From: a virus
Taxonomy: Duplodnaviria > Heunggongvirae > Uroviricota > Caudoviricetes
IMG/VR virus record: IMGVR_UViG_3300043427_004512
Reading direction: 5' to 3' (one strand)
DNA: 64,000 bases
The position numbers and the translations under genes are program-made. Below the pieces are notes generated by a model that was not told the origin of the DNA, searched no databases, and saw only the letters and a list, made by a program, of their open reading frames with translations. Below are positions 2,091 to 38,012 of this stretch, piece after piece. Within the stretch, counting starts at the first letter, position 1. Each line of letters begins with the position of its first letter.

Positions 2091-2549
2091 TTATTTATTT
2101 TTGTCAAATTCTTTTTGATACTTCAAAAATTTAGAATATCCTTGTCTTTCTTTTTTAATTTGTTCAGGAGATTTCTTTTCTTTTGGGGGTAATTTTTCTC
2201 TGACAGGTTTTTTTCTTTCTTTGGGAGGTTCATCAGCGCCAATGAGGTTGGAAAAATTTACACCCATAAATTTTTCAGCAGTTTTCCTCACGCCAAAATT
2301 ATCATTTATCCAATCTCTAACACCATCTCTCAAATCTTTCATAGATTCAAAAAATAAATTTTCAGTTAATTTTTTTAAAATAGTTTTATCGAGTGTTGCC
2401 GTAGTTGGGGAGAGAATCATCAATAATTTGTCTCCAACATAAAAATTTCTACTATCTTTTTCAAATTTCATTATATGTCCGTCAAAAATCTCATCGAGCA
2501 TGTTATGTAATATGGAATCACTTTGACTTTCTGATATAATGATTTTCAT
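2091..2549 (-). CDS. leader-B protein (MKIIISESQSDSIL..)
   Basis: N-terminal leader of the MKxIISE(R)Q family. Confidence 0.55.
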   Translation of the reverse strand: MKIIISESQSDSILHNMLDEIFDGHIMKFEKDSRNFYVGDKLLMILSPTTATLDKTILKKLTENLFFESMKDLRDGVRDWINDNFGVRKTAEKFMGVNFSNLIGADEPPKERKKPVREKLPPKEKKSPEQIKKERQGYSKFLKYQKEFDKNK

Positions 2550-2561
2550 CTTTTTTTTTAA

Positions 2562-2903
2562 TTAATTTTCATCTTTAATACAATTATCTTCAAAATAATA
2601 AACTAAAATTTCACCGAAAAGATTTCTACATACCCTTCTTAAGTAATCCGTAATTTCACTATAGTCATCAATTTCTTCCATTTTAGGACCAACTTCGGTA
2701 TAAAAATAATCAATGGCATCATCTATTACAGCATCAGCATAATCATAACCATCATTGTGTTCATCACAATAGGGTGGATTATTTTTTCGTGATAGTGAGA
2801 CGAACTTTTCTAATGTGTTTTTATTAGCCCTCCTTATAATGGATAATGGAATCTTGGATTCTATTATTACATTATATTGTCTCTCATTTAAAAGGTATTT
2901 CAT
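2562..2903 (-). CDS. leader-B protein; cargo domain paralogous to 17895..18371
   Basis: ATG at 2903 gives MKYLLNERQYNVIIES; the track start at 2909 is TTG; cargo IRRANKNTLEKF..YDYADAVIDDAIDYF matches IRRRANRETLKAY..YEYAVAVIDYAIDKL. Confidence 0.6.
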   Translation of the reverse strand: MKYLLNERQYNVIIESKIPLSIIRRANKNTLEKFVSLSRKNNPPYCDEHNDGYDYADAVIDDAIDYFYTEVGPKMEEIDDYSEITDYLRRVCRNLFGEILVYYFEDNCIKDEN

Positions 2904-2942
2904 TATCAATAAATACTTTCACTCATTTGTTTATATGAAATT

Positions 2943-2968
2943 AAAAACCCCTCAATATGCGAGGGGTT
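2943..2968 (-). terminator. rho-independent terminator (CCCCTC-aatatgc-GAGGGG plus T-run on minus strand)
   Basis: hairpin directly downstream of the 2998..3321 gene. Confidence 0.55.
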
Positions 2969-2997
2969 CAGTATAAAGTTTCTAATTCGATGAGGGA

Positions 2998-3321
2998 TTA
3001 AGACATTACAGGGTTCTTTGCAGAACTTAAGAATTTAGATGAAACACAAGCCAATAAAGAAAAAGCCTTCATGCCAAGGTCCGCACCTTTATTCGTAATC
3101 TCTTTCATACAATCTGCCGATGATTGTGGCATTTTCCCTTGCATTAGTTCTGCTCCTGCAGCCATACATTTTCCATAATTTCTCATATCTACGCCACTAT
3201 CCTCAAAACATTTTTGTATTACATTCATAGGATTCTGAGATGGTGGTGCAGTTTGTTCTTCGAGAACCTTTCTTACTATTCTTTCTAAATCATTTTCTGT
3301 TAATCTTACTATCTTTTTCAT
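2998..3321 (-). CDS. leader-A protein (MKKIVRLTENDLERIVRKVLEEQ), Cys-containing cargo
   Basis: internal Met at 3321 restores the family-A N-terminus; upstream TATTTATAATA box. Confidence 0.55.
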   Translation of the reverse strand: MKKIVRLTENDLERIVRKVLEEQTAPPSQNPMNVIQKCFEDSGVDMRNYGKCMAAGAELMQGKMPQSSADCMKEITNKGADLGMKAFSLLACVSSKFLSSAKNPVMS

Positions 3322-3346
3322 AAATTTTTTATTATAAATATATTGT

Positions 3347-4213
3347 TTAGAATTCAAAAGCAGCATCTCCCAATCTATTCGAACCGTTTTTCTCTAAAAA
3401 CTTAGCCATATCGGTCAAATACTGATTTTTACCACGAGAAAGGTCAATCAAATCCCAATCTTTTATGAACCACCCGTCTTCTCCAAAACCAGGAATTACT
3501 GACCACGTACCTTTTTCTTTACCAGTAGTAGCGGCATTTACACCTGATGAACTATTCCAAATTATTTCTTCACCATTCGGCATTTTTACTACGATTACTT
3601 CTCTACCTAAAGGGTCATGATAGGGACCTTCAACTACTTTGACATTCTGAGGGGAAAATTTAGTGTTAGATTTCGGTAATCTACTTATAAAATTACTTTT
3701 TATTGAATTAAAAGAAGGACATGATTTTTGAGTACATCCTTTGATAGCAAATTTATTTTTAATTTGTCTCGAAAGAGCTGTAGGATTTTTCGGGATATAG
3801 CTACCATCTAATGGTTTTTTGTTTTTTAAAAAGTCATCCATTACACTTCTAAAGTCCGTTCCATCCGCAAGTTTACTCGGAAAATATTTCAATACTTCTT
3901 CTCGTCTCAATCTACCCTTAGCAACATTTAACAAAATTTCTTCAACTGTTTCCATTGGTATTGGTGCTGTTTCTAAACTTTTGGATATTAAATATGATTT
4001 CCCTTTTTGTGTTATTACGTTTGGTGATTTGAATTTTATATATAAAAAGTTGTCAAAAGACTTTACAGCATCATCCGAAAAATATTTGAATATATCATCG
4101 AATGTATTTGAGAAGAACGATTTTAAATTTTTTTGTTCTTCGAGTCTTTTAACGGAATATAATTTATCAACTATTATTTTTTTTTGTTGTTCTGATATAA
4201 TCAACTTTTTCAT
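3347..4213 (-). CDS. leader-B protein (MKKLIISEQQKKIIVDKL..), 288 aa
   Basis: family-B leader; variable cargo. Confidence 0.55.
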   Translation of the reverse strand: MKKLIISEQQKKIIVDKLYSVKRLEEQKNLKSFFSNTFDDIFKYFSDDAVKSFDNFLYIKFKSPNVITQKGKSYLISKSLETAPIPMETVEEILLNVAKGRLRREEVLKYFPSKLADGTDFRSVMDDFLKNKKPLDGSYIPKNPTALSRQIKNKFAIKGCTQKSCPSFNSIKSNFISRLPKSNTKFSPQNVKVVEGPYHDPLGREVIVVKMPNGEEIIWNSSSGVNAATTGKEKGTWSVIPGFGEDGWFIKDWDLIDLSRGKNQYLTDMAKFLEKNGSNRLGDAAFEF

Positions 4214-4217
4214 ATTA

Positions 4218-5066
4218 TTAATTTTCTTTTATACTAGCAAGTAAATCCTGTAATCCTTTAAGATTATCTGGTCTGCTTTTATATGTATCTGTTTGAAATT
4301 CTACAGGTACAGGCTTATCAGGTCTCCACCCTTTATCCCAAGCCAAATTCAAAAGTTCATTATCTTTTTTGTTTCCTGAACTACCGAAAGCGGATTTAAC
4401 AAAATCCCAATCAAATCCTTCAACAGAGGTTTTAACTTTAGGAGTACCTCCTCGAACAATGTCATAACCCTTACTATATCCTACACCTGCTGCAGTATAA
4501 ACCGCGGCATCTTTACCTAAATTCTTGGCTCCTTGGACTACTGCTTGTTTTTTTAATTGTTTTTTTGCAAGTTCTTTTCCTGCACGAATTGAAGCATCTT
4601 GTCCAAGTTTCTTCATTCCATCTTCTATGAGTTTTCTATACTGAGCAACTTTTTTAACAACCTCCTCTTCTACTTGTGACAACTTGGTCCCGAATGATAA
4701 TTTTTTCCCGATTTCTGCCAAAGCTTTGCTTCCCCAACCAGATAAACCGATTTTTACAGCCAACCCTCCCACTAAAGGAATTGCACTAAATAATCCAACT
4801 AAACCAGCAGTTTTTTTATCACCATCATCCCAGTACAATTTAGCGTCAGCTAAACCAATTCCAATAGATATTAGAGGACCAATGACTGGAACGAACGATG
4901 TACCAATTTGGTGAATAGTGAGTATTTCATGGGGCGATAAACCTGTTTGTTCAAAAGATTTTCTAATAACGTCTGGCTTTTGATAATCATACCCACCTGG
5001 TGGTGCTAACGTTATTGGTTGCTCAGAAACTATTTTATATTGTCTTTCAGAAATAATAATTTTCAT
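4218..5066 (-). CDS. leader-B protein (MKIIISERQYKIVSEQ) with glycine-zipper hydrophobic core
   Basis: leader plus GTSFVPVIGPLISIGIGLA...LVGLFSAIPLVGGLAVKIGLSGWG. Confidence 0.55.
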   Translation of the reverse strand: MKIIISERQYKIVSEQPITLAPPGGYDYQKPDVIRKSFEQTGLSPHEILTIHQIGTSFVPVIGPLISIGIGLADAKLYWDDGDKKTAGLVGLFSAIPLVGGLAVKIGLSGWGSKALAEIGKKLSFGTKLSQVEEEVVKKVAQYRKLIEDGMKKLGQDASIRAGKELAKKQLKKQAVVQGAKNLGKDAAVYTAAGVGYSKGYDIVRGGTPKVKTSVEGFDWDFVKSAFGSSGNKKDNELLNLAWDKGWRPDKPVPVEFQTDTYKSRPDNLKGLQDLLASIKEN

Positions 5067-5080
5067 AATCTATAAATACG

Positions 5081-6163
5081 TTATTTAATTAATTCAGCAA
5101 ACAAATACCAATCATATCCACCGGGTTTTGAGCTAGCAAATTCACCAGGTAGTTGTATTTTTCCACTCTTGATTAACTTATAACCTTTAGATTCTTGGGC
5201 TCTTTTAGATTCATCATTAATTGCCAAAACAACTTTTTTAATCTTTAGATTACCTAGACCTACCGTCATCCTGAAAAGGATTTCATTTCCATTTGGGATA
5301 TATTTTAGTTCAACAGAATCTATTGAGTATAATTCACCTTCAAAAATGTTTTCTTCAGACCACTTTTGTAGTTTTTTACTCAACTCATTGAAAGCATCTT
5401 TTTTCAAGTCTACGTGTACGAGAAAATTTTCACTTTCCACCGAACTATTAGGTTTTGTGTTATTAGTATTTGTTTTGTTCTCAGAATCAGTAGGAAAATA
5501 TTTTTCCATAATCTGTGAAATATCCGCACCATTCCACATTTCTGCTATAATCTTTGGTCTGTTTTTCCATGATATTTCAAATTTTTGTTTGTATTCTTTT
5601 ACTTTATCTTCAGTCGGTTGTTCACCTGGTTTCGTTGGCGGCGTTAAAGATTTGTATTGTTCAACAATTTTAGAAATATATTTATCATAATAGTCATTAA
5701 TAGTTCCATCTTTAATTTTCTGTTTTACTAAATTGTAGGCATTGTTTCTGTAATCAACATCCGAAATTATTTTACCCCTATCCAAAGAAGGGTTTATAGC
5801 TTGAGCTAATCCTGCAATCCATCTATATTCTTTACCCACAGAGGAACCCGCTTGAAACATGAAAGAGTATATCTGTATTCTAAACAAAGGGTCTATCTTA
5901 AACCATTCCTTTTCAGTCAATCCATTTGGAAAATCTTTTATATATTTTTTTATTACTCCTTCAAGTTCGTCTCCCTTATGAGGCGTAGGTGCAGGTTTCC
6001 ATGTACCTCCGACTTTTTCTGCCGTACCCATATTGTTCTCAATATCCTCAATTATTTCATACCCTTTGGAAGGTATTAAACCATCTTTATACTGTTCATT
6101 CAACAACCCGTACATTTTTAGAATTTCACTTCTATCTGATTCTGATATAATAACTTTTTTCAT
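5081..6163 (-). CDS. leader-B protein (MKKVIISESDRSEILKMYGLLNEQ)
   Basis: internal Met at 6163 gives the family-B leader; the track has an N-extension. Confidence 0.5.
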   Translation of the reverse strand: MKKVIISESDRSEILKMYGLLNEQYKDGLIPSKGYEIIEDIENNMGTAEKVGGTWKPAPTPHKGDELEGVIKKYIKDFPNGLTEKEWFKIDPLFRIQIYSFMFQAGSSVGKEYRWIAGLAQAINPSLDRGKIISDVDYRNNAYNLVKQKIKDGTINDYYDKYISKIVEQYKSLTPPTKPGEQPTEDKVKEYKQKFEISWKNRPKIIAEMWNGADISQIMEKYFPTDSENKTNTNNTKPNSSVESENFLVHVDLKKDAFNELSKKLQKWSEENIFEGELYSIDSVELKYIPNGNEILFRMTVGLGNLKIKKVVLAINDESKRAQESKGYKLIKSGKIQLPGEFASSKPGGYDWYLFAELIK

Positions 6164-6180
6164 TTCAAAAATATTTTTTT

Positions 6181-7155
6181 TTAATAGTAAAGGTAATTCC
6201 AAGTCTCTCTGCCGACAATACCATCTTTACCTTTTAATCCGCTTTTAATTTGCATTTGTTTAACTGCCTTTCGTGTTTTAGGACCATAGATTCCATCACA
6301 TGATTGTTCGTTTTCACCACAATTTCCGGGATTTGAATTATCGTCTTTTAACTCGAACTGAACTTTTTTAACCAAGTCTCCACTACTTCCATTTCCTAAT
6401 ATATGTGTACCATCTAAAATCTGTTGTTCTGTAGTTGCATATCCTTTAGCTCTTGTTGTTTGCTCGGTTTTATAATCTCCACTCAAAACCGGTTTTGTTC
6501 CGTCCCAAGTCCATTGGAGTATCCTAACATACCCTCCGTCAGCCATATCTTTTTTAGCAATCTTAACCTTCCCATCATTTAGAAAAGCTATAATGTGTTC
6601 ATTATTTTTGAGTAGTAATTTAGAATCTCCTTCTTTTTTGGTTAAACTTTCTTTCGAAAAATCAGGTGGAAATCCATTGGACTCAAGGTATTGTTTTACT
6701 TTTGTCCAATTATCAACATTTGGGCTTGCTGCGGGGGCTGCGACGGTTTTTGGAGACAACTTGAAATTTTTGTAAAGATGGTCTTCCAAAGTATACGGTA
6801 CTTTTAATTCTTTAAGTTTTTCCAAAACCTTTTTCATGTCATTTTTGTTGTTGAATCCAAAACCAATTATACTTCCGAGCTCAAATTCACCTCTAATCAT
6901 TTCATCAAACGAACCATATCCTGTTTTTTTATCCTTAAATGTATCATTTAATTTATAAAATTCTTCGGGAGTTTTAATTAATGAAAGTCCGCTGATAATA
7001 TCTTTTGGACGAGTTCCTCCCCATGATTCACCTTTAGCACCTTTTATCATGTATTGATAAGCTTTCGATATATTATCTGTTTGGGCCTGTTCAGAAATTA
7101 CTTTACTAACTAAACGAACCAACTCTGATTCAGTTAATCTTACAACTTTTTTCAT
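6181..7155 (-). CDS. leader-A protein (MKKVVRLTESELVRLVSKVISEQ) with C-terminal peptidoglycan-binding (PG_binding_1-like) domain
   Basis: leader; C-terminus KTRKAVKQMQIKSGLKGKDGIVGRETWNYL matches the PG-binding 1 motif (DGI.G..T). Confidence 0.6.
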   Translation of the reverse strand: MKKVVRLTESELVRLVSKVISEQAQTDNISKAYQYMIKGAKGESWGGTRPKDIISGLSLIKTPEEFYKLNDTFKDKKTGYGSFDEMIRGEFELGSIIGFGFNNKNDMKKVLEKLKELKVPYTLEDHLYKNFKLSPKTVAAPAASPNVDNWTKVKQYLESNGFPPDFSKESLTKKEGDSKLLLKNNEHIIAFLNDGKVKIAKKDMADGGYVRILQWTWDGTKPVLSGDYKTEQTTRAKGYATTEQQILDGTHILGNGSSGDLVKKVQFELKDDNSNPGNCGENEQSCDGIYGPKTRKAVKQMQIKSGLKGKDGIVGRETWNYLYY

Positions 7156-7221
7156 ATTAAATTATTCTCTACAATAAATACCGCATCCGACCTGATTTGG
7201 ATTAATTAAACGATAGGAAAT

Positions 7222-7245
7222 AAAAAACCCCTCACAATGGAGGGG
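7222..7245 (-). terminator. rho-independent terminator (CCCCTC-acaatg-GAGGGG)
   Basis: hairpin plus T-run on the minus strand downstream of 7270..8286. Confidence 0.55.
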
Positions 7246-7269
7246 TAATTTATTTTTTAAAAGTTTTTT

Positions 7270-8286
7270 TTAATAAAGTCTTAATCCTTCAATTCTAATT
7301 CCATTACTTCCACAATCAACTTGGTATTGACTCTTTCCGGGTCTCGTTGAAACAACACTCTTGAGGTGGTTACAAATTTCCAAATATGTATCAGAATCTA
7401 ATGGCTTTTTGTTTAAGTATGTAGCCAAATCCATTCTTCTTGCGTTATAGATTTCTTGATTTAGTTGTTCCAAGTCTGAGAAAGTTTCAAGTCTTTTGAT
7501 TCCAAAAATAATACTATCTTCATCGGGCACTGAGTAAGTATCATATTTATCTTCACCAAGTCCTATATAATCTAAAATTTTATCGATAAAATCTTTACCT
7601 CTTTTAACACTAAGTAGTTTGTTAGGTGATTGAACATCTCTACTGCTTAAAGCTACACCTCTTTGGTCCAAACCTCTTGTTTCAATCGGTCTCATAATTA
7701 TTGTTCCAAATCTCTCTTTATCATTTGGTTTTACCTTATTCGAATCATAAAAATTGAAATTGAATTTTGTTGGTTCATAATTACTTGATTGCATCGAAAT
7801 GAGTTGTTCTATTTTGTCTGTTCTAATACCCAATTCTTTGAAAACTTCCGTTATTATATCAATGAATAATTTTTTTCTCATCCTCGAAACATTTACATTT
7901 TGGTCAGGTGTACCTGTTTGAGAAGTACCAACGTTAATTTCAAAAATCTGAGGTAATTTATACTTACTATCGATAAATCTTTCAATAGTATCTTTCATAT
8001 TCTCAAGATAAGATTTGATTTTATCTTTAACCATTTTTCTTGTTTCAGGTCTCATATTAGCCTTTCCTTCATCAAATGCAAAACCTCCCTGAAGTGCTTG
8101 TCCAGTATGAACTGGTTCAGGTTCCATTTCGTTTAAAATTACAGATTCAGAAATTGGCTTAACATCTCCAAGTTTCGATTCTATTAAAGTTTTAAATTTT
8201 GACGTATCAATTTTAATTCTGTCTGTGTGTTGTTCACGGATTGCATTTTTTTCTTGCTCCGTCAAATTATTCAATATGTGTTTCAT
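7270..8286 (-). CDS. hypothetical protein, 338 aa
   Basis: long ORF flanked by terminators. Confidence 0.5.
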   Translation of the reverse strand: MKHILNNLTEQEKNAIREQHTDRIKIDTSKFKTLIESKLGDVKPISESVILNEMEPEPVHTGQALQGGFAFDEGKANMRPETRKMVKDKIKSYLENMKDTIERFIDSKYKLPQIFEINVGTSQTGTPDQNVNVSRMRKKLFIDIITEVFKELGIRTDKIEQLISMQSSNYEPTKFNFNFYDSNKVKPNDKERFGTIIMRPIETRGLDQRGVALSSRDVQSPNKLLSVKRGKDFIDKILDYIGLGEDKYDTYSVPDEDSIIFGIKRLETFSDLEQLNQEIYNARRMDLATYLNKKPLDSDTYLEICNHLKSVVSTRPGKSQYQVDCGSNGIRIEGLRLY

Positions 8287-8317
8287 AAATTTATTTTTAT
8301 ATAAATATTAAAATTAA

Positions 8318-8343
8318 ATAAAAATCCCCTCTTGTGAGAGGGG
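8318..8343 (-). terminator. rho-independent terminator (TCCCCTC-ttgtga-GAGGGGA)
   Basis: hairpin plus T-run downstream of 8356..8715. Confidence 0.55.
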
Positions 8344-8355
8344 ATTTGATATTTT

Positions 8356-8715
8356 TTAATCCATTCTTTTCATTCTGAGTTTAACAGGACCATCTTGTTG
8401 ATACCTGTCCCAATATCCTTTACCAGGACTTCTGTCTCCCTTGAAACCTTTTGCACCAAACGACCACTTGTTTTCAGGGAAATCTGTATCTGTTTGAGAA
8501 ATATATTCTTCAAAATCCTCAGGACCAAATTCAATTTCTTCATCATAATCAAATTCACCTTTTACTGGTGAGTCCATTTCATCATACCATCTATCCTTGT
8601 GTCCCAAATAGCCCTTTTTTCTCATGGGTAATTCTTTATCCAATTCTGACTCTTTAACTATTTTTCTAACCAATCTGACCAGCTCAGATTCAGTTAATCT
8701 TACAACTTTTTTCAT
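8356..8715 (-). CDS. leader-A protein (MKKVVRLTESELVRLVRKIVKES)
   Basis: first 17 aa identical to 6181..7155, with synonymous nucleotide differences. Confidence 0.6.
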   Translation of the reverse strand: MKKVVRLTESELVRLVRKIVKESELDKELPMRKKGYLGHKDRWYDEMDSPVKGEFDYDEEIEFGPEDFEEYISQTDTDFPENKWSFGAKGFKGDRSPGKGYWDRYQQDGPVKLRMKRMD

Positions 8716-8765
8716 ATTAAATTATTTTACAATAAATATATTGTCTGACCCATTTGTTTAAGATA

Positions 8766-9044
8766 TTATTCATATGAACTCAGGACATCATCAACCATAT
8801 CAAAAAAATCATCCTTTTCATCCTGACTTATATCTTCGTTAAATTCTACCATCCTTGCCAATTGTTTAACCTGTCCCAACATATCATAAAGTTCATCAGA
8901 GCCAGGTTCCAAAGATTCCATTTGACTAACAATTACTTCCAACTCCACTATATAATCTTGTAAGTTATCAAACCTTTCCTCGTTTATTAATCTATATATT
9001 ATTCCCTTCAAATCAGATTCAGTCAACCTTATAACTTTTTTCAT
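8766..9044 (-). CDS. leader-A protein (MKKVIRLTESDLKGIIYRLINEE), acidic cargo
   Basis: family-A leader. Confidence 0.55.
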   Translation of the reverse strand: MKKVIRLTESDLKGIIYRLINEERFDNLQDYIVELEVIVSQMESLEPGSDELYDMLGQVKQLARMVEFNEDISQDEKDDFFDMVDDVLSSYE

Positions 9045-9195
9045 CTTAATTTATTTACAATAAATACTCCGACCCATTTGTTTTAGATGGTCCGTCATGA
9101 GGGGGGATATTCGACCCGACGAAGTCGGTCGGGGACCGTCGGTCAAAAAAAGGGGGTATGGGGGATTGTTGTTCGTTTCCGGCTGCAGACAGAGA

Positions 9196-9435
9196 TTATG
9201 GATACAACATAGTTCTGCTTTCAACACCAGCAGCTCTTTTAAGTTCAAAAACATAACGGGAAATACTATCATGAGCCTTAAAATATTCTTTAATATCACT
9301 AGGAATCATAACAATATCAATATATTGTCCATACTTATCAACCGATACTCGTTCTATAACGGGAAACTTCTTCATAAAAAGTTCGCTATTCAATAACTTT
9401 CTTAAAATTGCAATATCACGTTCCAACTTGTCCAT
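9196..9435 (-). CDS. hypothetical protein
   Basis: 79 aa ORF. Confidence 0.35.
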   Translation of the reverse strand: MDKLERDIAILRKLLNSELFMKKFPVIERVSVDKYGQYIDIVMIPSDIKEYFKAHDSISRYVFELKRAAGVESRTMLYP

Positions 9436-9441
9436 ATATAA

Positions 9442-9747
9442 TTAACAATTTTTTCTATGATTATAATAATATTCAGTAAGGTCAACATAAAATAGGTCCT
9501 TCAATTCTTCAAAAACACCATTATAGTCAAAACCATCAATTAAATAATATGACTCATGAATATCATCCATTAAATTATGATAAAATAGGGGTTCGTATTG
9601 TTCAAAGGAATCATAAACACAAGGGTCCATATACTTTAATGTTTCCATAAAAGTTTTTTTAACCAACTTGTATCTCCTTATTATCCATAACCTGTTAGAA
9701 GAATTAAGTATTCTTTCATATTGGTCTTCTGTTATGACATATTTCAT
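9442..9747 (-). CDS. leader-B variant protein (MKYVITEDQYERIL..)
   Basis: internal Met at 9747; the track N-extension is hydrophobic junk. Confidence 0.45.
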   Translation of the reverse strand: MKYVITEDQYERILNSSNRLWIIRRYKLVKKTFMETLKYMDPCVYDSFEQYEPLFYHNLMDDIHESYYLIDGFDYNGVFEELKDLFYVDLTEYYYNHRKNC

Positions 9748-10037
9748 ATAAGATAAATAGAACCACAAATAAAAAACCCCTCGTAAAACCTGAGTTGTTT
9801 CCAAAATGGAAATAGTTCAAAAAAAGAATGGTTCGTCATCAATCCATCCATACTTATTTCCCAAATAAACAAGAGTACAAGATAAAATAATTGCTCCCAA
9901 TAAAACGAGTAAGACTATCATAAACACAAAGGTAATACATTTTCCAAAAATTTCCAGAAATTTTTTTTTCTCGTTGGGAAGGTAAATTAAAATAGGGGGG
10001 GTCTTGTTTTAGAAGAGACAATACTCATAATTAAATT

Positions 10038-10208
10038 ATGAGAAACTACTACGACTTTTGGTCAAAGAAAATTATCAGACAAGGATTAAAAGCAATCAAG
10101 AGCGTTATTGGTCTTGGATTATCTTTCACATTTACACTTGAGAACCGGCTAATCGGTGGACTATTCTTTGGATGGGTATTGATGGAATCACTTATCGATA
10201 GAGAATAA
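10038..10208 (+). CDS. small membrane protein (56 aa; MRNYYDFWSKKIIRQGLKAIKSVIGLGLSFTFTLENRLIGGLFFGWVLMESLIDRE)
   Basis: not in the ORF track (under 60 aa); followed immediately by the terminator hairpin at 10211. Confidence 0.35.
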   Translation: MRNYYDFWSKKIIRQGLKAIKSVIGLGLSFTFTLENRLIGGLFFGWVLMESLIDRE

Positions 10209-10210
10209 AA

Positions 10211-10236
10211 AACCCCTTACTAAGAAGGGGTTTCAA
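10211..10236. terminator. hairpin CCCCTT-actaag-AAGGGG flanked by A6 and a weak T-run
   Basis: lies between the small plus-strand ORF and the minus-strand gene 10244..10462. Confidence 0.5.
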
Positions 10237-10243
10237 TTATTCA

Positions 10244-10462
10244 TTAAGGTACTCTAATTTGAAATCTTGTTTTTAAGTCTGGAACAAATACAGTGAAACT
10301 ATCTCCCTTTCGTTTGATAGATACTTGACGATAAACAGTATTATCAGGAATTTCCCTCAGATTAGAACTATTTTTTATATTAACCACATTAGGTTGTTCA
10401 TTTAAAACTTTATTAACCAAACGAGATAAATGCTCTTCTGTCAATCTTACCGTCTTTTTCAT
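10244..10462 (-). CDS. leader-A protein (MKKTVRLTEEHLSRLVNKVLNEQ), 72 aa
   Basis: family-A leader. Confidence 0.55.
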   Translation of the reverse strand: MKKTVRLTEEHLSRLVNKVLNEQPNVVNIKNSSNLREIPDNTVYRQVSIKRKGDSFTVFVPDLKTRFQIRVP

Positions 10463-10517: not shown

Positions 10518-10964
10518 TTATGAATTATTCCTTGAATTAATTTGACGGGTCTTTTTTTTCTTTATCCTTAAATGAGGAGGTATTAATTTTCTAACCTTGA
10601 TAATTGTTTTATTACTCGCTCCCGTAAGTTCTATTATTCTTTTAATAGTCAAACCCTCTTTCAGATACTCACCAATTTCCCTATTCATAGGTTTATTCAA
10701 AAAAGTTGTTTCATCTTCCACACTACCCTTAGGTCTACCTTCTATATAAGACAATGGGAGACCCATTGCAATTTTTTCTTCCTTTCTCTTCTTTCTTCCA
10801 ATTGATGCCAACTTCTGTATCTTTAACATATGGTCCCCATGAACTTTTGAATGACATAATTCACATAACGGAATAGTCTTAGTCCCACCTTTAACTCTCG
10901 GTACAACATGATGATTATGAATTCTTTCATCCGACCCACATTCGAAACATACAATTTTTTCCAA
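10518..10964 (-). CDS. HNH homing-type endonuclease with C-terminal HTH
   Basis: CFECGSDERIHNHHVVP...CELCHSKVHG HNH motif; apparent TTG start; bracketed by 22-bp direct repeats. Confidence 0.75.
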   Translation of the reverse strand: MEKIVCFECGSDERIHNHHVVPRVKGGTKTIPLCELCHSKVHGDHMLKIQKLASIGRKKRKEEKIAMGLPLSYIEGRPKGSVEDETTFLNKPMNREIGEYLKEGLTIKRIIELTGASNKTIIKVRKLIPPHLRIKKKKTRQINSRNNS

Positions 10965-12086: not shown

Positions 12087-12287
12087 GTAAAAAACATTTT
12101 TTGGTTATATCATAAATACATTATACCTTTGCTTTGTCTGAATATAAGTAGGACGGGCTGGAGTGAACCTCTTGGAGCTGAATCAAAGGCAGGTTGCTTA
12201 ATAATAATATTAAGGTCAAGTTTTCCGTTCGAAAAACTTGACCTTAATATGTGGATAAGTTTATTTGGCAGTTTGGGAAATATTTCG

Positions 12288-12295
12288 TATCTTTG
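12288..12295 (+). promoter_or_regulatory. Bacteroidetes-type -7 box TATCTTTG
   Basis: matches the TAnnTTTG consensus; duplicated at 12348. Confidence 0.35.
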
Positions 12296-12347
12296 TAGGT
12301 TATTCCCCCCTATATAAAATTCTTTTGGCCATGTCAGAAAATAGTCG

Positions 12348-12355
12348 TACCTTTG
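12348..12355 (+). promoter_or_regulatory. Bacteroidetes-type -7 box TACCTTTG next to the start of 12360..12767
   Basis: tcgtaCctttgtag repeats tcgtaTctttgtag at 12283. Confidence 0.35.
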
Positions 12356-12359
12356 TAGT

Positions 12360-12767
12360 ATGAAAATGACAAAGAACATACTATTAAAGACTGACACTCG
12401 GGACCTTAGTCAAACCAAGGTTAAGGAGATTGCCAAGCTTACCATCATGTATGGTGTTGGGAAGTTTGGGGTCCATAACTATAAGAAGGTCCCCACCGTT
12501 TCAGTTGTCAATAACCCTGACGATAAGTTCTATGGTATGTTTGACTGTGGGACCAATAAGATAGTTGTCAATAGAGCTTATGCTGTCAATGTTAAATTGT
12601 TGGTCCAAACTATTCTCCATGAATATACCCACTACCTTCAGAACATGAGCAAGTATATACAACTCTATAAGAAGGTTGGGTATGACAACCACCCCTACGA
12701 AGTGGAAGCAAGAAACAGTGAGAAGTTATATTCAGAAGCGTTCAAACAAATAAAACAATTGATATGA
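12360..12767 (+). CDS. HExxH metallopeptidase-like protein (LHEYTHYL)
   Basis: HExxH motif; 135 aa. Confidence 0.45.
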   Translation: MKMTKNILLKTDTRDLSQTKVKEIAKLTIMYGVGKFGVHNYKKVPTVSVVNNPDDKFYGMFDCGTNKIVVNRAYAVNVKLLVQTILHEYTHYLQNMSKYIQLYKKVGYDNHPYEVEARNSEKLYSEAFKQIKQLI

Positions 12768-13207: not shown

Positions 13208-13861
13208 ACCATAAAATATACGTTGGGAACATATAAAAATAAAGATGACATTGTGTCTGTTAATATCAGGAAGGGGAATGTGGATAAAAAAATACCCCTA
13301 AAAATTTGGATTTGTCAGAATGTCAGGGGACTCGCCACGATGGGGATAATCCCTTTTCCACATTTTCCCCCACTTTCTCCCACCACTGATTCCCACTTTT
13401 TACCACCGAATTGTGTGTGTAGATAGTGTAGGGACCACTTTTTCCCCTGTGGCACTATCAGGAGGACCATATTTTTACTATATATATTTCCCAGATAAAA
13501 AAGGAATATTAAGTGTAATGTGGGGGGAGTGAGTGTAACGAACCTTTAACCCTATATAATACCCCTTCAACGAACCTGTTAGTTTGGTTTTATGACCTTC
13601 CACGAGATGGACAATCTATGTCCCCTTCGTAGCGGACATCTCATATGGTGGGTAAAAGTGGGAAGAGTATAATTTTGTCATTAGTACCACAAAGTGGTAC
13701 CTTTAACATAAAATTACTCTTAAGGGAATATAAGTGTCATACCCTAATGGGTGTAATTATTTACCGAAGGTATTGTCTTATACCCTTATGGGTGTAGACA
13801 CAATATATCACCATCTCACTGATGTCCTGTCATTATATGGGGGACAAGATATAAGGTGGGG

Positions 13862-13946
13862 ATTATAGAGTAAGGTGGTGAACGTAAGGACTTCCGAACG
13901 AAGTGAGGAATGTATTGTCCTGAAGTGAACTAACTTACTCTATAAT
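13862..13946. other. stem-loop element copy A (13-bp inverted repeat attatagagtaag / cttactctataat enclosing ccgaacgaagtgagg and gtgaact)
   Basis: perfect inverted repeat read from the sequence; a second copy with compensatory stem changes at 15511..15610. Confidence 0.5.
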
Positions 13947-13951
13947 ATACG

Positions 13952-14479: not shown

Positions 14480-14505
14480 ATATGTGTTTGTTTATTTATA
14501 AGATA

Positions 14506-14513
14506 CAAAGATA
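14506..14513 (-). promoter_or_regulatory. -7 box TATCTTTG (minus strand) 27 nt upstream of the 14479 start
   Basis: gtatctttgta, same core as 12283, 28707 and 29671. Confidence 0.35.
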
Positions 14514-14584: not shown

Positions 14585-14588
14585 AACT

Positions 14589-16239: not shown

Positions 16240-16614
16240 CTAAAATTTTGTCAAAGCATAACTCGTGACTGAAAAAGAATAAGGAGGTAATCCCAAAATC
16301 TTGGTAATATTTCTTACTTTTCTCTCGTTTGATTCGAGGTGGTCAGAGAAATCTGTATCAGTTTCATCGTATTTTAATTTGATTTGGTACATCCCCTGAA
16401 GTTCATTCCATATTACCTCGACATCGAAAACATGTGGTAAAGACATTTTGGACAACAATCTTTTAATAATGTTGTATGTTGATTCTGAATACTCGACATT
16501 CTCATATTGAGCCAATTCGTTAATATTCATCATCTGTTTAATCCTGTCTATGTTTTCCTGTAAGTTCATGTTTATAAATATATTTGTAAGATAATTATAT
16601 GGTATGAAATACAT
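16240..16614 (-). CDS. leader-C protein (MNLQENIDRIKQMMNINE..)
   Basis: internal Met restores the MNLQENI leader. Confidence 0.5.
   Translation of the reverse strand: MYFIPYNYLTNIFINMNLQENIDRIKQMMNINELAQYENVEYSESTYNIIKRLLSKMSLPHVFDVEVIWNELQGMYQIKLKYDETDTDFSDHLESNERKVRNITKILGLPPYSFSVTSYALTKF
16579..16586 (+). promoter_or_regulatory. -7 box TATATTTG 17 nt upstream of the ATG at 16604
   Basis: matches the TAnnTTTG consensus. Confidence 0.3.
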
Positions 16615-16984
16615 TATATCTGAAAGACAATATCAATTAATAAGTGAAACTTTGGACACGAGTTCTTTAGCACTTAGAAGAAGATTATCTTTAATCGAAA
16701 AATTAATCGACGAGGAATTAGCAGAGATTCATAAAGAAGGTGGTAGTGAATTCACGGACCTAATCGAATTCATGAACATTGTAATTAATATCGTTGTGGA
16801 TAAAGTTTTTACGGAAACAGGTGGAGAAGAAGAATTAGACCAAGAAGAATTAAAAGAATTTATTGAAGAGCATTATGGTGATTACATACTTTCTATGTTC
16901 CCACATGATTTGGAAGGCGATGAAGAGGATGATGAAGACTATGAAGAAGATGAAGACTATGAAGAAGAGGATGATGAATTCTAA
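16604..16984 (+). CDS. leader-B protein (MKYIISERQYQLISE) with poly-acidic C-terminal tail
   Basis: leader; DE-rich tail containing an 18-nt tandem repeat gatgaagactatgaagaa x2. Confidence 0.55.
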   Translation: MKYIISERQYQLISETLDTSSLALRRRLSLIEKLIDEELAEIHKEGGSEFTDLIEFMNIVINIVVDKVFTETGGEEELDQEELKEFIEEHYGDYILSMFPHDLEGDEEDDEDYEEDEDYEEEDDEF

Positions 16985-17421: not shown

Positions 17422-17898
17422 TTATCCAGGTGTCATGTTGTCCAAGTAATATTCCTCTATCTCATCAGAGAAATAATCTTCAACATATTTTGTAATGTAT
17501 GGTTCGATTTTCTCTCTCATTTTTAATATTTCTTCGTAATTTAGGTCTCCTGAAGAATTAGAAATTTCTCTTATAACATTAAAAATAATTCTTGACATAT
17601 ACTCATCATAACTGTTAAAAGACCATGGTACAAGATGTTCGTAAGTATCTCTAACATATCTCGGCAAAAAATCAAATAATCTTCTTTTGATGTATAGTGG
17701 GATTTCTGATTCTGTGACTAAGTCGTTATTTGTGCCACAGTGTGGACAGATGGGTAAAGACTTCTTTCCCTTGTGTATTGTCTGTGTAAACTTCTTTTTA
17801 CAATTGAAACATTTAATCCATTTTTCTCCTGACTCTTTTTCTTCGAGAGAAACTCCCATCACTTCCTTAATCCTTGATATGTTTTCTTGTAAGTTCAT
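17422..17898 (-). CDS. leader-C protein (MNLQENISRIKEVMGVSLEE) with zinc ribbon (CFNCKKKF..CPHCG)
   Basis: internal Met gives the leader and an ATGA overlap with the upstream gene; the track N-extension is spurious. Confidence 0.55.
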   Translation of the reverse strand: MNLQENISRIKEVMGVSLEEKESGEKWIKCFNCKKKFTQTIHKGKKSLPICPHCGTNNDLVTESEIPLYIKRRLFDFLPRYVRDTYEHLVPWSFNSYDEYMSRIIFNVIREISNSSGDLNYEEILKMREKIEPYITKYVEDYFSDEIEEYYLDNMTPG

Positions 17899-18371
17899 TT
17901 CTTTTTCTTTTTTACACAGTTTGGATATTTTTTCCCGAACATTGTCTTCATCCCTTTTTGTGTATATCCTTTCCAACACCTTTCAGTTATTTCTGACTCG
18001 TTCTGTTCCTGTCTTCCTGAATCTGACATATATTCAGAACAAGTTGTTTTATATACTTCAATCAAATACTGACCAAACATAATCTCAGTCATACTTCTTA
18101 AATAATCCAAAACATCACTGATGTAATCCTGCTCAAATATGTCATCATCCACATCATCCAATAATTTATCAATCGCATAATCAATTACAGCAACAGCATA
18201 TTCATATTCATCACCAAAATCGTCACACAGAGTTGGATATTCCAATTCTGCTCTGTTTATATAAGCTTTCAGTGTCTCACGGTTAGCTCTTCTTCTAATT
18301 GAACTAGGAACAGTGGATTCATTTATACCCATCACGTCCTTAATCCTTGATATGTTTTCTTGTAAATTCAT
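17895..18371 (-). CDS. leader-C protein; cargo paralogous to 2562..2903
   Basis: MNLQENISRIKDVMGINES followed by the IRRRANRETL..YEYAVAVIDYAID domain. Confidence 0.6.
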   Translation of the reverse strand: MNLQENISRIKDVMGINESTVPSSIRRRANRETLKAYINRAELEYPTLCDDFGDEYEYAVAVIDYAIDKLLDDVDDDIFEQDYISDVLDYLRSMTEIMFGQYLIEVYKTTCSEYMSDSGRQEQNESEITERCWKGYTQKGMKTMFGKKYPNCVKKKKK

Positions 18372-18949
18372 TTCATTAACTCTAATGCATGTTCGAGACT
18401 TTTAACCCCAAATTTACGTGCTTGAACCAAACGTCTACCCTTGGATGAGTCTTTGTCCCAACATAGAATACACGGACGTTTTTTATTTAACTCATCTTCC
18501 CAATGGTTGTATTGTGTTGTATAGTCCCATATTTTTTTAGTATTTCCCCATCCTTTGGAATATAACCAACCTCCAACATTTCCTCCTGTTCTATCCATTC
18601 CGTTTCTACAATGAATTAAAGTATAACCCTTATCCAAAATTGAATTTACTTTGCTTTGGTCGTTTTCTGCGTCCAAGAGGAAGAAATTACATCCCAAAGA
18701 CTCACAAATCTTTTTTTCCTCGGCTACAGACAAACCTTTACTGTCTCCTCCATCTGCGTTAAACCTAATTATGTTTTTGATTTTGTTAACTCTAATTGTA
18801 TTTTTCAGAACCTCTGAAGGTAATTCACCTGAGCGGAAATTGTTTTTTCCTAATGGGATTTGATGTAAGTTAGTCTGAGTAATACTCGATTGTTCTTTGA
18901 TAAGACCCATGACCTCCTTGATTCTATTTAAGTTTTCAGTTAAGTTCAT
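18368..18949 (-). CDS. leader-C dual-specificity/tyrosine protein phosphatase
   Basis: MNLTENLNRIKEVMG leader; active-site loop HCRNGMDRTG (CX5R). Confidence 0.7.
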   Translation of the reverse strand: MNLTENLNRIKEVMGLIKEQSSITQTNLHQIPLGKNNFRSGELPSEVLKNTIRVNKIKNIIRFNADGGDSKGLSVAEEKKICESLGCNFFLLDAENDQSKVNSILDKGYTLIHCRNGMDRTGGNVGGWLYSKGWGNTKKIWDYTTQYNHWEDELNKKRPCILCWDKDSSKGRRLVQARKFGVKSLEHALELMK

Positions 18950-18954
18950 CTTGA

Positions 18955-19239
18955 TTATAAATTGTCAATAGATTTTATAAGTTTATGACATTTTTGGGAC
19001 ACTTTACCTTTTTCATGGTCTGTTATTGATATTTTGACTTTGTTGTATTTGATTTCAATATCAGGATGATGGTCTTGTTTTTCCGCTATTTTAGCAACTT
19101 TATTAACAAAATCTATGGATTGGTCAAAATTTTTAAATTCAAATGTTTTTTCCAACTTTTTTTCAGAGTCGCCCCATCCTTTAGATTCACTCAAAGTCAT
19201 CACTTCCTTAATCCTTTGTATGTTTTCTTTTAGGTTCAT
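18955..19239 (-). CDS. leader-C pterin-4a-carbinolamine dehydratase-like protein
   Basis: MNLKENIQRIKEVM leader; EKQDHHPDIEIKYNKVKISITDH matches the PCD/DCoH signature. Confidence 0.65.
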   Translation of the reverse strand: MNLKENIQRIKEVMTLSESKGWGDSEKKLEKTFEFKNFDQSIDFVNKVAKIAEKQDHHPDIEIKYNKVKISITDHEKGKVSQKCHKLIKSIDNL

Positions 19240-19907
19240 TACTTTTTAAGTTCTGATGATATTTTAACCGCAATGTCTGCGTCTTTTTTTAAATCTTGAA
19301 CAAGCGTATTAAAATTTTGTAAAGGCTCTTTGAAATATTTCAACTTTGGTGTTTTATTTACTTCTTGAATTAATTGAGAAAGTTTTTTTGATACTTCAGT
19401 TAAACTTTCAGCTAATTCTCCTCCTAAAAATTTGGCAAGTACTAAAAGAAATAAGTATTGAAATTTATTCTTGAATAGAAAAAATTTGGTTCTATCAACT
19501 ATCCCCAACTTTTGACCAATAATCATAATTTCCGCTGGTGTATACTTTAAAACTTGTTTTATTCCTGTTCTAACCATAATTGGTAATGAGTTTCCCGCAA
19601 TTGGAATAAAAGTTGCGCCAAGAGTTATGAAGGCGAGTGTCGCATTTTCTATTCTTTCTTCATCAGTTTTACTGAAAAAATACCTAACAATGTAAGAAAT
19701 AGTGTGGATAATATCTATACCAGCAGATACGAGATTACCAATTCCAGGTATTCCATCAATCGCAGCTGAAACAAGGTCAATTGTGTCATCAAGACCAATT
19801 GAAGGTAAATCTTCATGTTTAGTCCTTGGTTGAAATCTACTGTCAGGAATTTGTTCGTTAATTCCCATGACTTCCTTTATCCTTTGTATATTTTCTTGTA
19901 AGTTCAC
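19239..19907 (-). CDS. leader-C protein with glycine-zipper membrane segment; GTG start
   Basis: leader MNLQENIQRIKEVMGINEQ encoded from the GTG at 19905-19907; IDGIPGIGNLVSAGIDIIHT. Confidence 0.5.
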   Translation of the reverse strand: MNLQENIQRIKEVMGINEQIPDSRFQPRTKHEDLPSIGLDDTIDLVSAAIDGIPGIGNLVSAGIDIIHTISYIVRYFFSKTDEERIENATLAFITLGATFIPIAGNSLPIMVRTGIKQVLKYTPAEIMIIGQKLGIVDRTKFFLFKNKFQYLFLLVLAKFLGGELAESLTEVSKKLSQLIQEVNKTPKLKYFKEPLQNFNTLVQDLKKDADIAVKISSELKK

Positions 19908-19962
19908 AGATTATAAATACAAAAGAAAAAACAATTTTTTCAAGTACTATTGGAATTAATCT

Positions 19963-22053: not shown

Positions 22054-22587
22054 TTATTGTTCTTTGTCAAAATTATTTGTACCGTCAGGTTTGACAAAAT
22101 ACACATTTATTTTTTCCTCATCTTGAATAGAATCTAAAGGAACTCCCTTATTATTTTCTGATTTCCAAGGTTTTTCCATAAGAATGGTTTTGTTGTGAGG
22201 TACGATTATTGTAGGAATCATTTTTACTTTAGCCATTTTGTGAGCTGCGAGTCTATGATTTCCATCGACGACTAAATATTTTTTTTCATCTAATGGATGT
22301 TGAACTACGAGAACAGGTGGAAGTTCCATTCCACTTTTGAGAGACATTACCATTTTTGAAACATTTTCACTATTTTGCATGTAATCAAAATCCTTGAATG
22401 GTTCGTTGGGAATCATATCTTTCAAGGGTAAATAAAATTTCTCTCCCTTATTTAATTCTTCACCCGTGTCACTTCCTCCACCATTCGGATATATTCTCAA
22501 TAAGTCTTCATATGGACTTTCTTCTTCAGTTGGAAGTTCCATTATTTCTAATATTCTTTTAATGGTTTCATCTAGCTTCATCATCAT
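22054..22587 (-). CDS. ParB-like nuclease domain protein
   Basis: PVLVVQHPLDEKKYLVVDGNHRLAAHKMA resembles the ParB/Srx fold motif. Confidence 0.45.
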   Translation of the reverse strand: MMMKLDETIKRILEIMELPTEEESPYEDLLRIYPNGGGSDTGEELNKGEKFYLPLKDMIPNEPFKDFDYMQNSENVSKMVMSLKSGMELPPVLVVQHPLDEKKYLVVDGNHRLAAHKMAKVKMIPTIIVPHNKTILMEKPWKSENNKGVPLDSIQDEEKINVYFVKPDGTNNFDKEQ

Positions 22588-37313: not shown

Positions 37314-37676
37314 ATGTTGATAAAAATTAATCAAAAAGAATTTCAAGTCAAAGTTTTAGTTGATAAAAAGTCTCAAGAAATCGGTATGAAAAAAAATAAA
37401 TTTTCTTCACCGAACGAAGGATTACTTTTTTTAATGGGTGGAAACCGTCAGTGTTTTTGGATGAAAGATTGTATAGTTCCGTTAGATATTATAATAATTG
37501 AAAATAATACTATAAAGAAAATACATCACAATTGTCCTCCTTGTGATAATGAAAATTGTCAATCATATTGTGGTAATGGAAATATAGTTTTGGAACTAAT
37601 GGGAAATTCCTGTAAAAAACACAATATAGAAGAAGGGGATTCTGTGGAATATGTTTTAAAATCAAAAAAGTCCTAA
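37314..37676 (+). CDS. DUF192-like protein
   Basis: LDIIIIENNTIKKIH...NIVLELMGNSCKK resembles COG1430/DUF192; start moved to the ATG at 37314. Confidence 0.45.
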   Translation: MLIKINQKEFQVKVLVDKKSQEIGMKKNKFSSPNEGLLFLMGGNRQCFWMKDCIVPLDIIIIENNTIKKIHHNCPPCDNENCQSYCGNGNIVLELMGNSCKKHNIEEGDSVEYVLKSKKS

Positions 37677-38012
37677 AAATTTACTTTCAAACTTATCAAG
37701 ACCGTCTTCTCTCATTTTAGTAAACGTTTCACGCCCTAAAATACCATCAGGATATATTCTTTTTTCTGATTGATATTTTTTAATTGCCGCCTCAGTTTTA
37801 GAGTTAGGTCCGGTCTTTCCATCAACTTTTAATGGAACGAATGTTTTGTCTTTCTTATATCTGTTGTTTAAAAATTTTTGAACCGAAGTGACTGTTTCAT
37901 ATTCTTCTTCGTCGTGTTGTTCTGTAATCACTCTCTTAATAATCATTCTCAAATCAGACTCTGTAAGTCTTATAACTTTCGGTTCCACTGAAAATTTATC
38001 TTTATTTTTCAT
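37662..38012 (-). CDS. leader-A protein (..KVIRLTESDLRMIIKRVITEQ) with C-terminal peptidoglycan-binding domain
   Basis: AIKKYQSEKRIYPDGILGRETFTKM is a PG_binding_1 motif; 12-aa N-extension before the leader; possible GTG start. Confidence 0.55.
   Translation of the reverse strand: MKNKDKFSVEPKVIRLTESDLRMIIKRVITEQHDEEEYETVTSVQKFLNNRYKKDKTFVPLKVDGKTGPNSKTEAAIKKYQSEKRIYPDGILGRETFTKMREDGLDKFESKFLGLF

Follow-up and report, generated by a model that had tools for sequence, protein, structure and literature searches.

The question raised by this locus is whether a phage carries one and the same protein domain under two different N-terminal leader peptides, and what such leaders might be for. We analysed a 64,000-nucleotide stretch of phage DNA (Caudoviricetes; IMG/VR record IMGVR_UViG_3300043427_004512; hereafter, the window), in which a gene at 2562..2903 on the minus strand, coding for a 113-aa protein, had been proposed to share its cargo, but not its leader, with the 158-aa product of 17895..18371 (−). 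We found that the shared core is real and far beyond chance: BLASTP with composition adjustment aligns the two proteins without a gap (38/96 residues identical, 40%; 57/96 positive, 59%; E=3e-19) from I13/I16 to C108/C111, and the aligned region takes in all of the stretches quoted in the original prediction (IRRAN.., YDYADAVIDDAIDYF/YEYAVAVIDYAIDKL and DYSEITDYLRRV/DYISDVLDYLRSM). The alignment starts exactly at IIES/INES, in agreement with the proposal that (I)xES stands directly before the homologous region in both proteins, and the N-termini do come from different families; the 113-aa protein opens with leader B (residues 1-16, MKYLLNERQYNVIIES, ending in I-I-E|S; 2856..2903 (−); leader-B hidden Markov model (HMM), 29.9 bits) and the 158-aa protein with leader C (residues 1-19, MNLQENISRIKDVMGINES; 18315..18371 (−); leader-C HMM, 43.6 bits).

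The order of helices is also identical in AlphaFold2 (AF2) models of the two proteins, with helices at residues 20-25, 28-41, 52-70 and 81-108 of the 113-aa protein (predicted local distance difference test, pLDDT, 84.6) and at residues 23-28, 31-44, 55-74 and 84-119 of the 158-aa protein (pLDDT 77.2), and with pLDDT of 83-95 over the cargo blocks. In the shorter protein, leader B is extended over residues 1-6 and helical over residues 7-15, and is followed by the cargo core (residues 17-108; 2580..2855 (−)), a four-helix acidic domain with an isoelectric point (pI) of 4.5 and an IIRR motif at its start; the protein scores 117 bits with the cargo HMM. In the longer protein, leader C is modelled as a helix (residues 3-13) and then a flexible linker holding I-N-E|S, ahead of the homologous core (residues 20-112, pI 4.1; 18036..18314 (−)). 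Both genes encode paralogous copies of an acidic four-helix ‘xRRR’ domain specific to phages, with leader B in front of one copy and leader C in front of the other. Neither protein matched a Pfam family, no PHROG family covered the cargo domain, the best Foldseek match against BFVD had an E value of 0.41, and the cargo fold is without a known relative.

The 158-aa protein has a third module that the original prediction did not mention, namely a basic C-terminal tail (residues 122-158; linker and tail at 17898..18008 (−), EQNESEITERCWKGYTQKGMKTMFGKKYPNCVKKKKK; tail pI 10.2, predicted β-hairpin), which is preceded by I-T-E|R and is absent from the 113-aa protein. This is the sole tail copy within the window, but the tail is portable; it was found on 36/339 cargos (20 under leader C, nine under D, six under A and one under B). 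The only PHROG matches of the 158-aa protein fall within it (PHROGs 9737, 727 and 4359, all without assigned function), and it gave one weak match in cultured phages, of a 44-residue segment to an internal part of a 665-aa protein adjoining the terminase in the T4-like cyanophage SynMITS9220M01. The form EQNESEITERCWKGY..PNCVKKKK (CWKGY..PNCV) occurs on ParB-like, pterin dehydratase, Zn-ribbon and other metagenomic cargos, and also at 3001-3129 of contig L003; the I/L-T-E|R/K directly before the tail may be another protease site.

At the DNA level the two window genes are just 57% identical overall and 48% identical at third codon positions, and their longest identical run is 9 nt. They are old paralogs, not recent recombinants, and for this reason a breakpoint is unreadable from the two genes alone. 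The same figures would suit a history without any exchange, in which the N-termini of two old paralogs have simply drifted apart, but we regard this as barely tenable, since wider comparisons already contradict it. Each N-terminus matches a separate, strongly conserved family that is found on many unrelated cargos, and the cargo-core HMM recovers ~50 distinct proteins that sit under leaders A, B, C and D, under C/D hybrids, and behind Zn ribbon or other domains. Once leaders and tails had been trimmed, the cargos formed 173 clusters, and nine of the 54 multi-member clusters contained two or more leader types; cargos at least 60% identical occur under B, C and D leaders, and one such clade comprises C with tail, B with tail, B without tail, D with tail, D with an extra domain and tail, and C with Zn ribbon, cargo and tail.

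A mosaic pair gives a direct view of such an exchange. P0026 (leader B) and P0018 (leader C), from contigs of sister samples, have unrelated leaders; over the 5′ half of the cargo their DNA identity is ~70%, and from alignment column ~293 it is 100% through the gene end, the tail and the downstream gene. The breakpoint lies inside the cargo (~codon 78, near DEDYYSDVMDY), off the junction, which argues that the crossover used cargo homology; a leader plus half a cargo would here have been replaced via paralog recombination, unless the P0018 contig, which is only 645 bp long, is an assembly chimera. The B+tail form is present on many contigs. Protein comparisons point to gain or loss of the tail exactly at ..TTCEEYN (P0051 vs. 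P0032) and to an in-frame fusion in P0036 that leaves only the last residues of leader B (..FLKES). Between copies of leader DNA in the window, stretches of up to 29 nt are identical, long enough to seed recombination. These results support the view that leaders and cargo behave as separable modules, and new combinations come from paralog recombination and gene fusion. The original prediction therefore stands as to separability, through the mixed combinations and the mosaic contig pair, but not as to the two window genes being direct evidence of recombination, and no breakpoint was recovered at the leader/cargo junction, where it suggested looking for one, the sole resolvable recent one sitting inside the cargo instead. 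The cargo HMM also detected tandem arrays of up to four xRRR units in which internal leader copies are kept; single open reading frames (ORFs) with two to four ‘leader + xRRR domain’ units lie in L056 (10092-11243 region), L020 (13191-15182) and L027 (14393-15676), and these look like read-through fusions of tandem genes or polyprotein precursors.

How widespread are the leaders, and what do they carry? A search of 85 loci (1.56 Mb) with leader HMMs A-D returned 464 leader matches (A, 124; B, 147; C, 170; D, 23) in 342 distinct proteins with median lengths of 122-175 aa, nearly all of which start at the Met/Val of model position 1, i.e. the leaders are N-terminal. They are peptides of 12-23 residues in four classes, combined with hundreds of unrelated cargos: leader A (consensus MKKVVRLTESELVRLVxKVIxE; MKKVVRLTESELVRLV..E), leader B (MKYIITESQY..), leader C (MNLQENIxRIKEVMGINES) and leader D (MRxLIKKILKEE), a fourth class found in related contigs, with C/D hybrids such as MNLQETIKRILKEE. 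Neither Pfam nor PHROG has a family that covers the leaders, and leader and tail motif strings had no match in the literature. Within the window, HMMs support at least 19 leader genes, and three more B-like genes score below threshold; across these regions leader-bearing genes make up ~15% of genes, or roughly one in seven. The cargos, 60-737 aa in length, are folded domains and enzymes; a Pfam scan of 138 leader-bearing cargos matched PG_binding_1 (4/138), Pterin_4a (2), NUDIX, Acb1/2H phosphoesterase, thioredoxin, AAA_18/33, HD and ParB_N, and one cargo, absent from the 10 largest leader proteins, weakly matched ART-PolyVal (E=3.3e-5). Leader C by itself is found on Pterin_4a, ParB_N (22054-22581), CX5R phosphatase-like and Zn-ribbon cargos and, in L004, on an AAA kinase (AAA_33 type, 9158-9997) and on an Acb1-like protein (anti-CBASS, i.e. 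directed against the cyclic-oligonucleotide-based antiphage signalling system, 2H phosphoesterase; 12138-12704 (+)), the latter with the leader-C variant MKLNEEVLRIKEVMGLNEN.

The conservation of the leaders could reflect the peptide or the nucleic acid that encodes it. Codon entropy within the leaders is highest at position 3 (1.0-1.2, vs. 0.4-0.6 at position 2), and conserved L, T, R, S and I residues are encoded by several synonymous codons. Because third positions are the most variable and synonymous codons are mixed, selection acts on the peptide and not on an RNA or DNA element, and an RNA-level cause of the conservation was ruled out by the codon-position entropy. The same data bear on the idea that the N-termini are a mere expression constraint, imposed by leaderless or near-leaderless mRNAs that need a certain 5′ coding sequence, with the peptide itself functionless. 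A promoter-like TATTTAT at 2909..2915 (−) starts 12 nt upstream of the likely ATG (2903) of the 2562-2903 gene, for which a TTG at 2909 is the alternative start, and (G/A)TATTTAT occurs window-wide (e.g. at 5072-5078 (−), 16574-16580 (−), 19913-19919 (−), 24305-24311 (−) and 43486-43492 (+), in addition to 2909-2915 (−)). An ORF of at least 50 aa begins within the next 45 nt for 39 of the 62 TATTTAT sites, with the motif starting either at −11 to −13, which leaves 4-6 nt before the ATG, or at −19 to −25; the −11 to −13 peak is found among leader B, C and D genes, and the short spacing implies leaderless or near-leaderless mRNAs, with transcripts that may start at or near the AUG. The leaders also open with A-rich codons, and related contigs have a ribosomal protein S21-like ORF, both of which would favour an expression constraint. 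Against it, in addition to the codon data, many genes without a leader peptide have TATTTAT at the same distance (11-13 nt), so that the leader is dispensable for expression; operon-internal leaders without a promoter of their own are equally conserved (17895-18371, 18368-18949 and 18955-19239); and hydrophobic periodicity is kept across the classes. We therefore consider an expression constraint highly improbable.

If selection acts on the peptide, its shape may indicate its use. In AF2 models the leaders consist of a helix followed by a low-confidence linker that holds a Glu, and a hydrophobic-x-Glu stands at the leader end in 98% of class A, 80% of C, 100% of D and 39% of B, compared with 10-17% of background windows; leader B has I-(T/S)-E at residues 5-7 in ~94%. 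Leader C keeps the motif in either of two registers, G-I-N-E and G-L-I-x-E, which favours a site over a helical repeat. We reasoned that the leaders could be capsid-targeting propeptides cut by a prohead protease, in a greatly expanded, multi-class version of the T4 internal-protein system, an explanation that we hold to be about as probable as all others combined. The amphipathic leader would dock to the scaffolding core during prohead assembly, thereby enclosing the cargo in the capsid; cleavage after the terminal hydrophobic-x-Glu (IIE|S, INE|S) by an S77 prohead protease of the T4 type would then free the mature cargo, which would later be ejected into the host with the DNA, and the leader classes may set the copy number, position or timing of loading. 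The cargo types fit ejected or host-takeover proteins (PG_binding_1, Acb1/2H phosphoesterase, NUDIX, HD, ParB_N, kinase, thioredoxin, weak ART-PolyVal and hydrophobic Gly-rich proteins).

Several features are shared with T4, in which the gp21 protease has the consensus L/I-x-E and the capsid-targeting sequence (CTS) reads MKTYQEFIAE. T4 and the T-even phages have internal proteins (IPI, IPII, IPIII, Alt and the variable Ip loci) whose sole common part is a short leader at the N-terminus, and here too a leader is what otherwise unrelated small proteins of one phage conserve (19 window genes; 342 proteins in the census). Its terminal hydrophobic-x-Glu is a putative site for a prohead protease of the gp21 (Peptidase_S77) kind; the genes occupy variable loci, with cargos that resemble host-takeover or anti-defence proteins; and related leader-bearing phages have a gp20/gp21/gp22-like/gp23 head module. 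In the literature, T4 CTS propeptides have 10-20 residues, and the proteases of T4, phiKZ, 201phi2-1 and SPN3US cut after Glu (PMC5694885), while T-even internal proteins have only the packaging-directing leader in common (PMC12373910, PMC3012670). Unlike T4, the leaders described here show by eye no resemblance to the CTS beyond ‘MK.Y’ in leader B, fall into four longer classes (12-23 aa) rather than one, and come with enzyme cargos of up to 737 aa, multi-unit fusions and an additional portable C-terminal tail. The scale also differs: T4 has three and T-evens a reported ~10, compared with at least 19 genes within 64 kb and 342 distinct proteins within 1.56 Mb here. The hosts are not enterobacteria, the genomes measure ~270-326 kb, and packaging and cleavage are here putative. 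The leaders may thus work like the T4 system, yet they are not sequence members of it.

Evidence linking the leaders to the head comes from related contigs. L124 and L168 (a contig of 315,966 bp) carry a T4-type head module with Portal_T4, Peptidase_S77 (81.9 bits, cutoff 27), a very acidic scaffold and Gp23 (249.5 bits), the last three of which are encoded downstream of the portal in L124 (protease at 13336-14052, scaffold at 14405-16006), and an S77/scaffold/gp23-type module is found in six relatives with the same leaders, cargo and tail (L124, L168, L057, L063, L069 and L106). A row of leader-C genes (xRRR, ParB and ParB with tail) stands directly upstream of terminase and portal in L057, L063 and L069, and a conserved leader-A protein is encoded 2-3 kb from the capsid gene in eight head-module contigs. 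The capsid protein itself has five conserved hydrophobic-x-Glu sites in its N-terminus in 10/10 variants; the last of these, LINE|A(S/A)ST, stands 11 residues ahead of the part alignable with mature T4 gp23 and carries the same tripeptide as the end of leader C. We predict that LINE|A is the maturation site, which we take to correspond to ..LTE|AEIGG in T4. More than 7,900 relatives of the protease gene occur in the protein collection, and the matches listed are at least 74% identical and include a 316-kb contig with the head module; the window phage itself presumably has the same module. Within the L168 module, the T4-type portal gene contains an intein (5697-8543; Intein_splicing + Portal_T4, 948 aa), and a small ORF at 9259-9444 weakly matches ribosomal protein S21.

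A number of points weigh against capsid targeting. The head module is absent from the 64-kb window, from the flanks of its closest relatives, L004 and L006, and from the 10 kb past the left end of the window, which hold lysis and other genes, and when the L124 head proteins were compared by tblastn with loci from jumbo contigs, only L057-type loci matched. The presence of leader proteins in virions, and their cleavage, are what we infer. In sequence, the leaders do not resemble the T4 CTS; hydrophobic-x-Glu is short, and any Glu/Lys-rich amphipathic helix tends to have one; and its enrichment is partly circular, because the motif belongs to the conserved sequence used to find the leaders. At ~15% of genes, the packaged repertoire would be very large and would extend to such odd cargos as pterin-4a-carbinolamine dehydratase. 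In L124, L106 and L109, TATTTAT stands ahead of the portal, protease and scaffold genes, but a promoter shared with head genes is unspecific, because methyltransferase genes and others without a structural role have the motif as well; none was seen ahead of the sigma-factor gene, the SbcC-like gene and their neighbours (59.6-64 kb), and this distribution makes it the mark of a broad non-early class, not a head-specific one. Finally, L124 encodes in its head module a basic 207-aa protein, p207 (18148-18771 (+)), that ends in GLRDLIQKVLKESIG, a leader-D-like helix at the C-terminus, an arrangement as compatible with a general docking helix as with a propeptide that is cleaved.

Such a docking helix is the basis of a competing explanation, which we consider rather unlikely: the leaders would remain uncleaved and bind a shared partner other than the capsid, such as a phage chaperone or hub, a host protein, or a replication or assembly compartment. 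Beyond p207, this would agree with the amphipathic helix followed by a linker and with the internal leader copies retained in the multi-unit fusions of L056, L077 and L032. The window has a DnaJ-like gene (50606-51532) and a ClpB-like ATPase gene adjoins leader genes in L057, but for the partner these are candidates alone. In form, the leaders resemble the encapsulation peptides of microcompartments and the cargo-loading peptides of encapsulins, in which a short amphipathic helix plus a flexible linker brings diverse enzymes into a protein shell, and encapsulin shells have the HK97 fold, as do phage capsids. This likeness is one of mechanism only, not of membership; no bacterial microcompartment shell or encapsulin genes were seen in the Pfam scans, and those peptides are not removed by a protease. 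Docking alone also fails to account for the hydrophobic-x-Glu that ends every class inside the flexible linker, and for leader genes clustered beside a T4-type head module with an S77 protease.

We also weighed whether the leaders serve in the export or membrane targeting of periplasmic or envelope proteins, as the peptidoglycan-binding cargos (6181-7155; 4/138) and the hydrophobic, Gly-rich segments of the leader-bearing 4218-5066 (leader B) and 19239-19907 (leader C) proteins might suggest. The leaders are amphipathic helices that carry charge and have neither a hydrophobic core nor a signal-peptidase site, and for lack of that core are not Sec, Tat or lipoprotein signals; the RRR motif that follows them belongs to the cargo helix and is succeeded by polar residues with no hydrophobic stretch, as read from the sequences, so it is not a Tat motif. 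True Bacteroidota-type signal peptides, on 1590-2054, 13952-14479 and 56189-56599, look quite different, and many cargos are cytoplasmic-type enzymes (kinase, NUDIX, ParB_N, Acb1), all of which makes export quite improbable. Nor are these leaders of ribosomally synthesized and post-translationally modified peptides (RiPPs; Nif11/NHLP type), because the cargos are folded proteins; no RiPP maturation genes were found among the Pfam matches.

Returning to capsid-targeting propeptides, two other groups of known systems offer partial parallels. The N-terminal propeptides of phiKZ, 201phi2-1 and SPN3US are believed to direct proteins to the prohead interior, and the SPN3US paralogs gp53 and gp54 have conserved N-termini (PMC5694885). 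These are likewise jumbo phages with a homologous Glu-cutting prohead protease; unlike the leaders here, their propeptides are mostly longer than 100 residues, have the motif A/S/G-x-E and are known for a handful of processed proteins, with interchangeable leader classes undescribed, and the window phage differs from them in having a sigma-70-type factor, while phiKZ-type markers were not seen in it. Polymorphic toxins, polyvalent proteins and MuF toxins also join a conserved N-terminal trafficking or packaging module to shuffled C-terminal effectors, and one weak ART-PolyVal cargo occurs here; in contrast to them, the constant part is a 12-23-residue peptide and not a folded domain, most cargos consist of one small domain of unknown fold, and pairing with immunity genes is not evident. 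A wider reading, which we find speculative and on balance improbable, is that the leaders form a combinatorial addressing code, in which at least four leader classes plus the basic hairpin tail would route cargos to different destinations or loading stages (capsid interior, DNA-bound fraction or another compartment), beyond a single T4-like targeting.

Which phages have this system? The exact 17895-18371 protein is present on Joint Genome Institute (JGI) metagenome contigs from samples 3300044701 and 3300047510 and has 1809 metagenomic relatives, and a syntenic relative lies on the 270,856-bp contig L004. IMG/VR relatives sit on contigs of 268-326 kb, several of which have 5-10 further window genes at 44-50% identity; the window therefore derives from an uncultured jumbo-phage family, and the modular leader system belongs to this family, with genomes of roughly 270-326 kb. 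Among 50,697 cultured or deposited phage records, no close relative was found (megablast of 20 kb; tblastn of the protein) and leaders A and C had no tblastn match; no relatives that would link the phage to a host or prophage were found among GTDB species genomes.

The window is AT-rich (~32% GC) and phage-like, with an SbcC/gp46-like ATPase, a sigma-70-family factor (59653-60450 (−); PHROG 351, E=3e-53), a virion structural protein, a ParB-like protein, an amidase, three apparent methyltransferase-like ORFs read by eye, and one tRNA-Met (CAT; 36257-36329 (−)) in a 1.6-kb stretch of little coding potential (35.25-36.88 kb). Its leader-A genes, given by their lower coordinate, are those at 2998, 6181, 8356, 8766, 10244 and 37662, its leader-B genes those at 2091, 2562, 4218, 9442, 16604 and 17035, and its leader-C genes those at 16240, 17422, 17895, 18368, 18955, 19239 and 22054. 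A cluster at 2091..10462 (−) holds, besides the 2562-2903 gene, the leader-B genes 2091-2549 and 4218-5066, the sub-threshold B-like genes 3347-4213 and 5081-6163, and the leader-A genes 2998-3321, 6181-7155 (PG_binding_1), 8356-8715, 8766-9044 and 10244-10462; within its limits, 9442..9747 (−) joins leader B (29.4 bits) to a divergent xRRR-type domain (IIRRYK..), the identical copy of which in L001 scores 28.4 bits with the cargo HMM. Another divergent xRRR domain (42.5 bits), with an acidic tail, stands under leader B (29.4 bits) at 16604..16984 (+).

Five consecutive leader-C genes with overlapping stops and starts run through 17422..19919 (−), headed by the TATTTAT at 19913-19919: 19239-19907, 18955-19239 (Pterin_4a, Pfam E=1.9e-23), 18368-18949, 17895-18371 and 17422-17898. 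The last of these has a fusion architecture of leader C, Zn ribbon, ‘LVTES’ and a second, more divergent xRRR domain, and its orthologs in L006 and L004 score 21.8 and 18.4 bits with the cargo HMM; the 18368-18949 (−) protein, which had no Pfam or PHROG match, contains HCRNGMDRTG, a CX5R protein-phosphatase-type signature. Elsewhere, leader C is found on a ParB_N-like protein flanked by two virion-structural-type genes (22054..22581 (−)), and leader A on a small PG-binding-like protein (37662..37985 (−)), the longest ORF of which adds eight residues before the leader. The product of 20278-20583 looked by eye like an xRRR paralog without a leader, but was missed by the cargo HMM and was excluded.

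Other neighbours include four tandem paralogous genes at 14601-16237 (+) with a common N-terminal ‘LxKLIxxLVLPKYPxIKD’ and relatives in L004, in which this segment may be another repeated N-terminal module or the mark of a plain small paralog family. An HNH-endonuclease-like ORF (10518-10964 (−); CxxC..HH motifs, by eye) separates the leader-A/B cluster from the block that follows, and could be a mobile element that adds to local rearrangement. Also by eye, the DnaJ-like protein (50606-51532 (−)) has a Cys-rich zinc-finger region, and two thioredoxin/glutaredoxin-like proteins are encoded at 45120-45723 (−).

From T4 it is known that a constant leader can be joined to variable packaged cargo; what appears to be undescribed is the scale, the four classes with their hybrids, the C-terminal tail, the enzyme cargos, the multi-unit fusions and the setting in uncultured jumbo phages. 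Short conserved labels at both ends of the cargo, together with paralogous cargos, provide recombination handles through which the arsenal could diversify. The collection is a candidate source of anti-defence and host-takeover functions, including the Acb1-like anti-CBASS enzyme, NUDIX, HD, ParB-like, phosphatase-like and kinase-like proteins and hundreds of domains of unknown fold. The T4 CTS has already been used to load foreign proteins, and the leaders described here are possible tags for loading such proteins into large capsids. Were the addressing code to hold, the delivered or sorted proteome of an uncultured virus family would become readable from its genes, and the leaders would be ready-made tags. 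If the leaders are capsid-targeting propeptides, they would provide a list, drawn up from genomes, of the head-packed and injected proteins of abundant uncultured jumbo phages.

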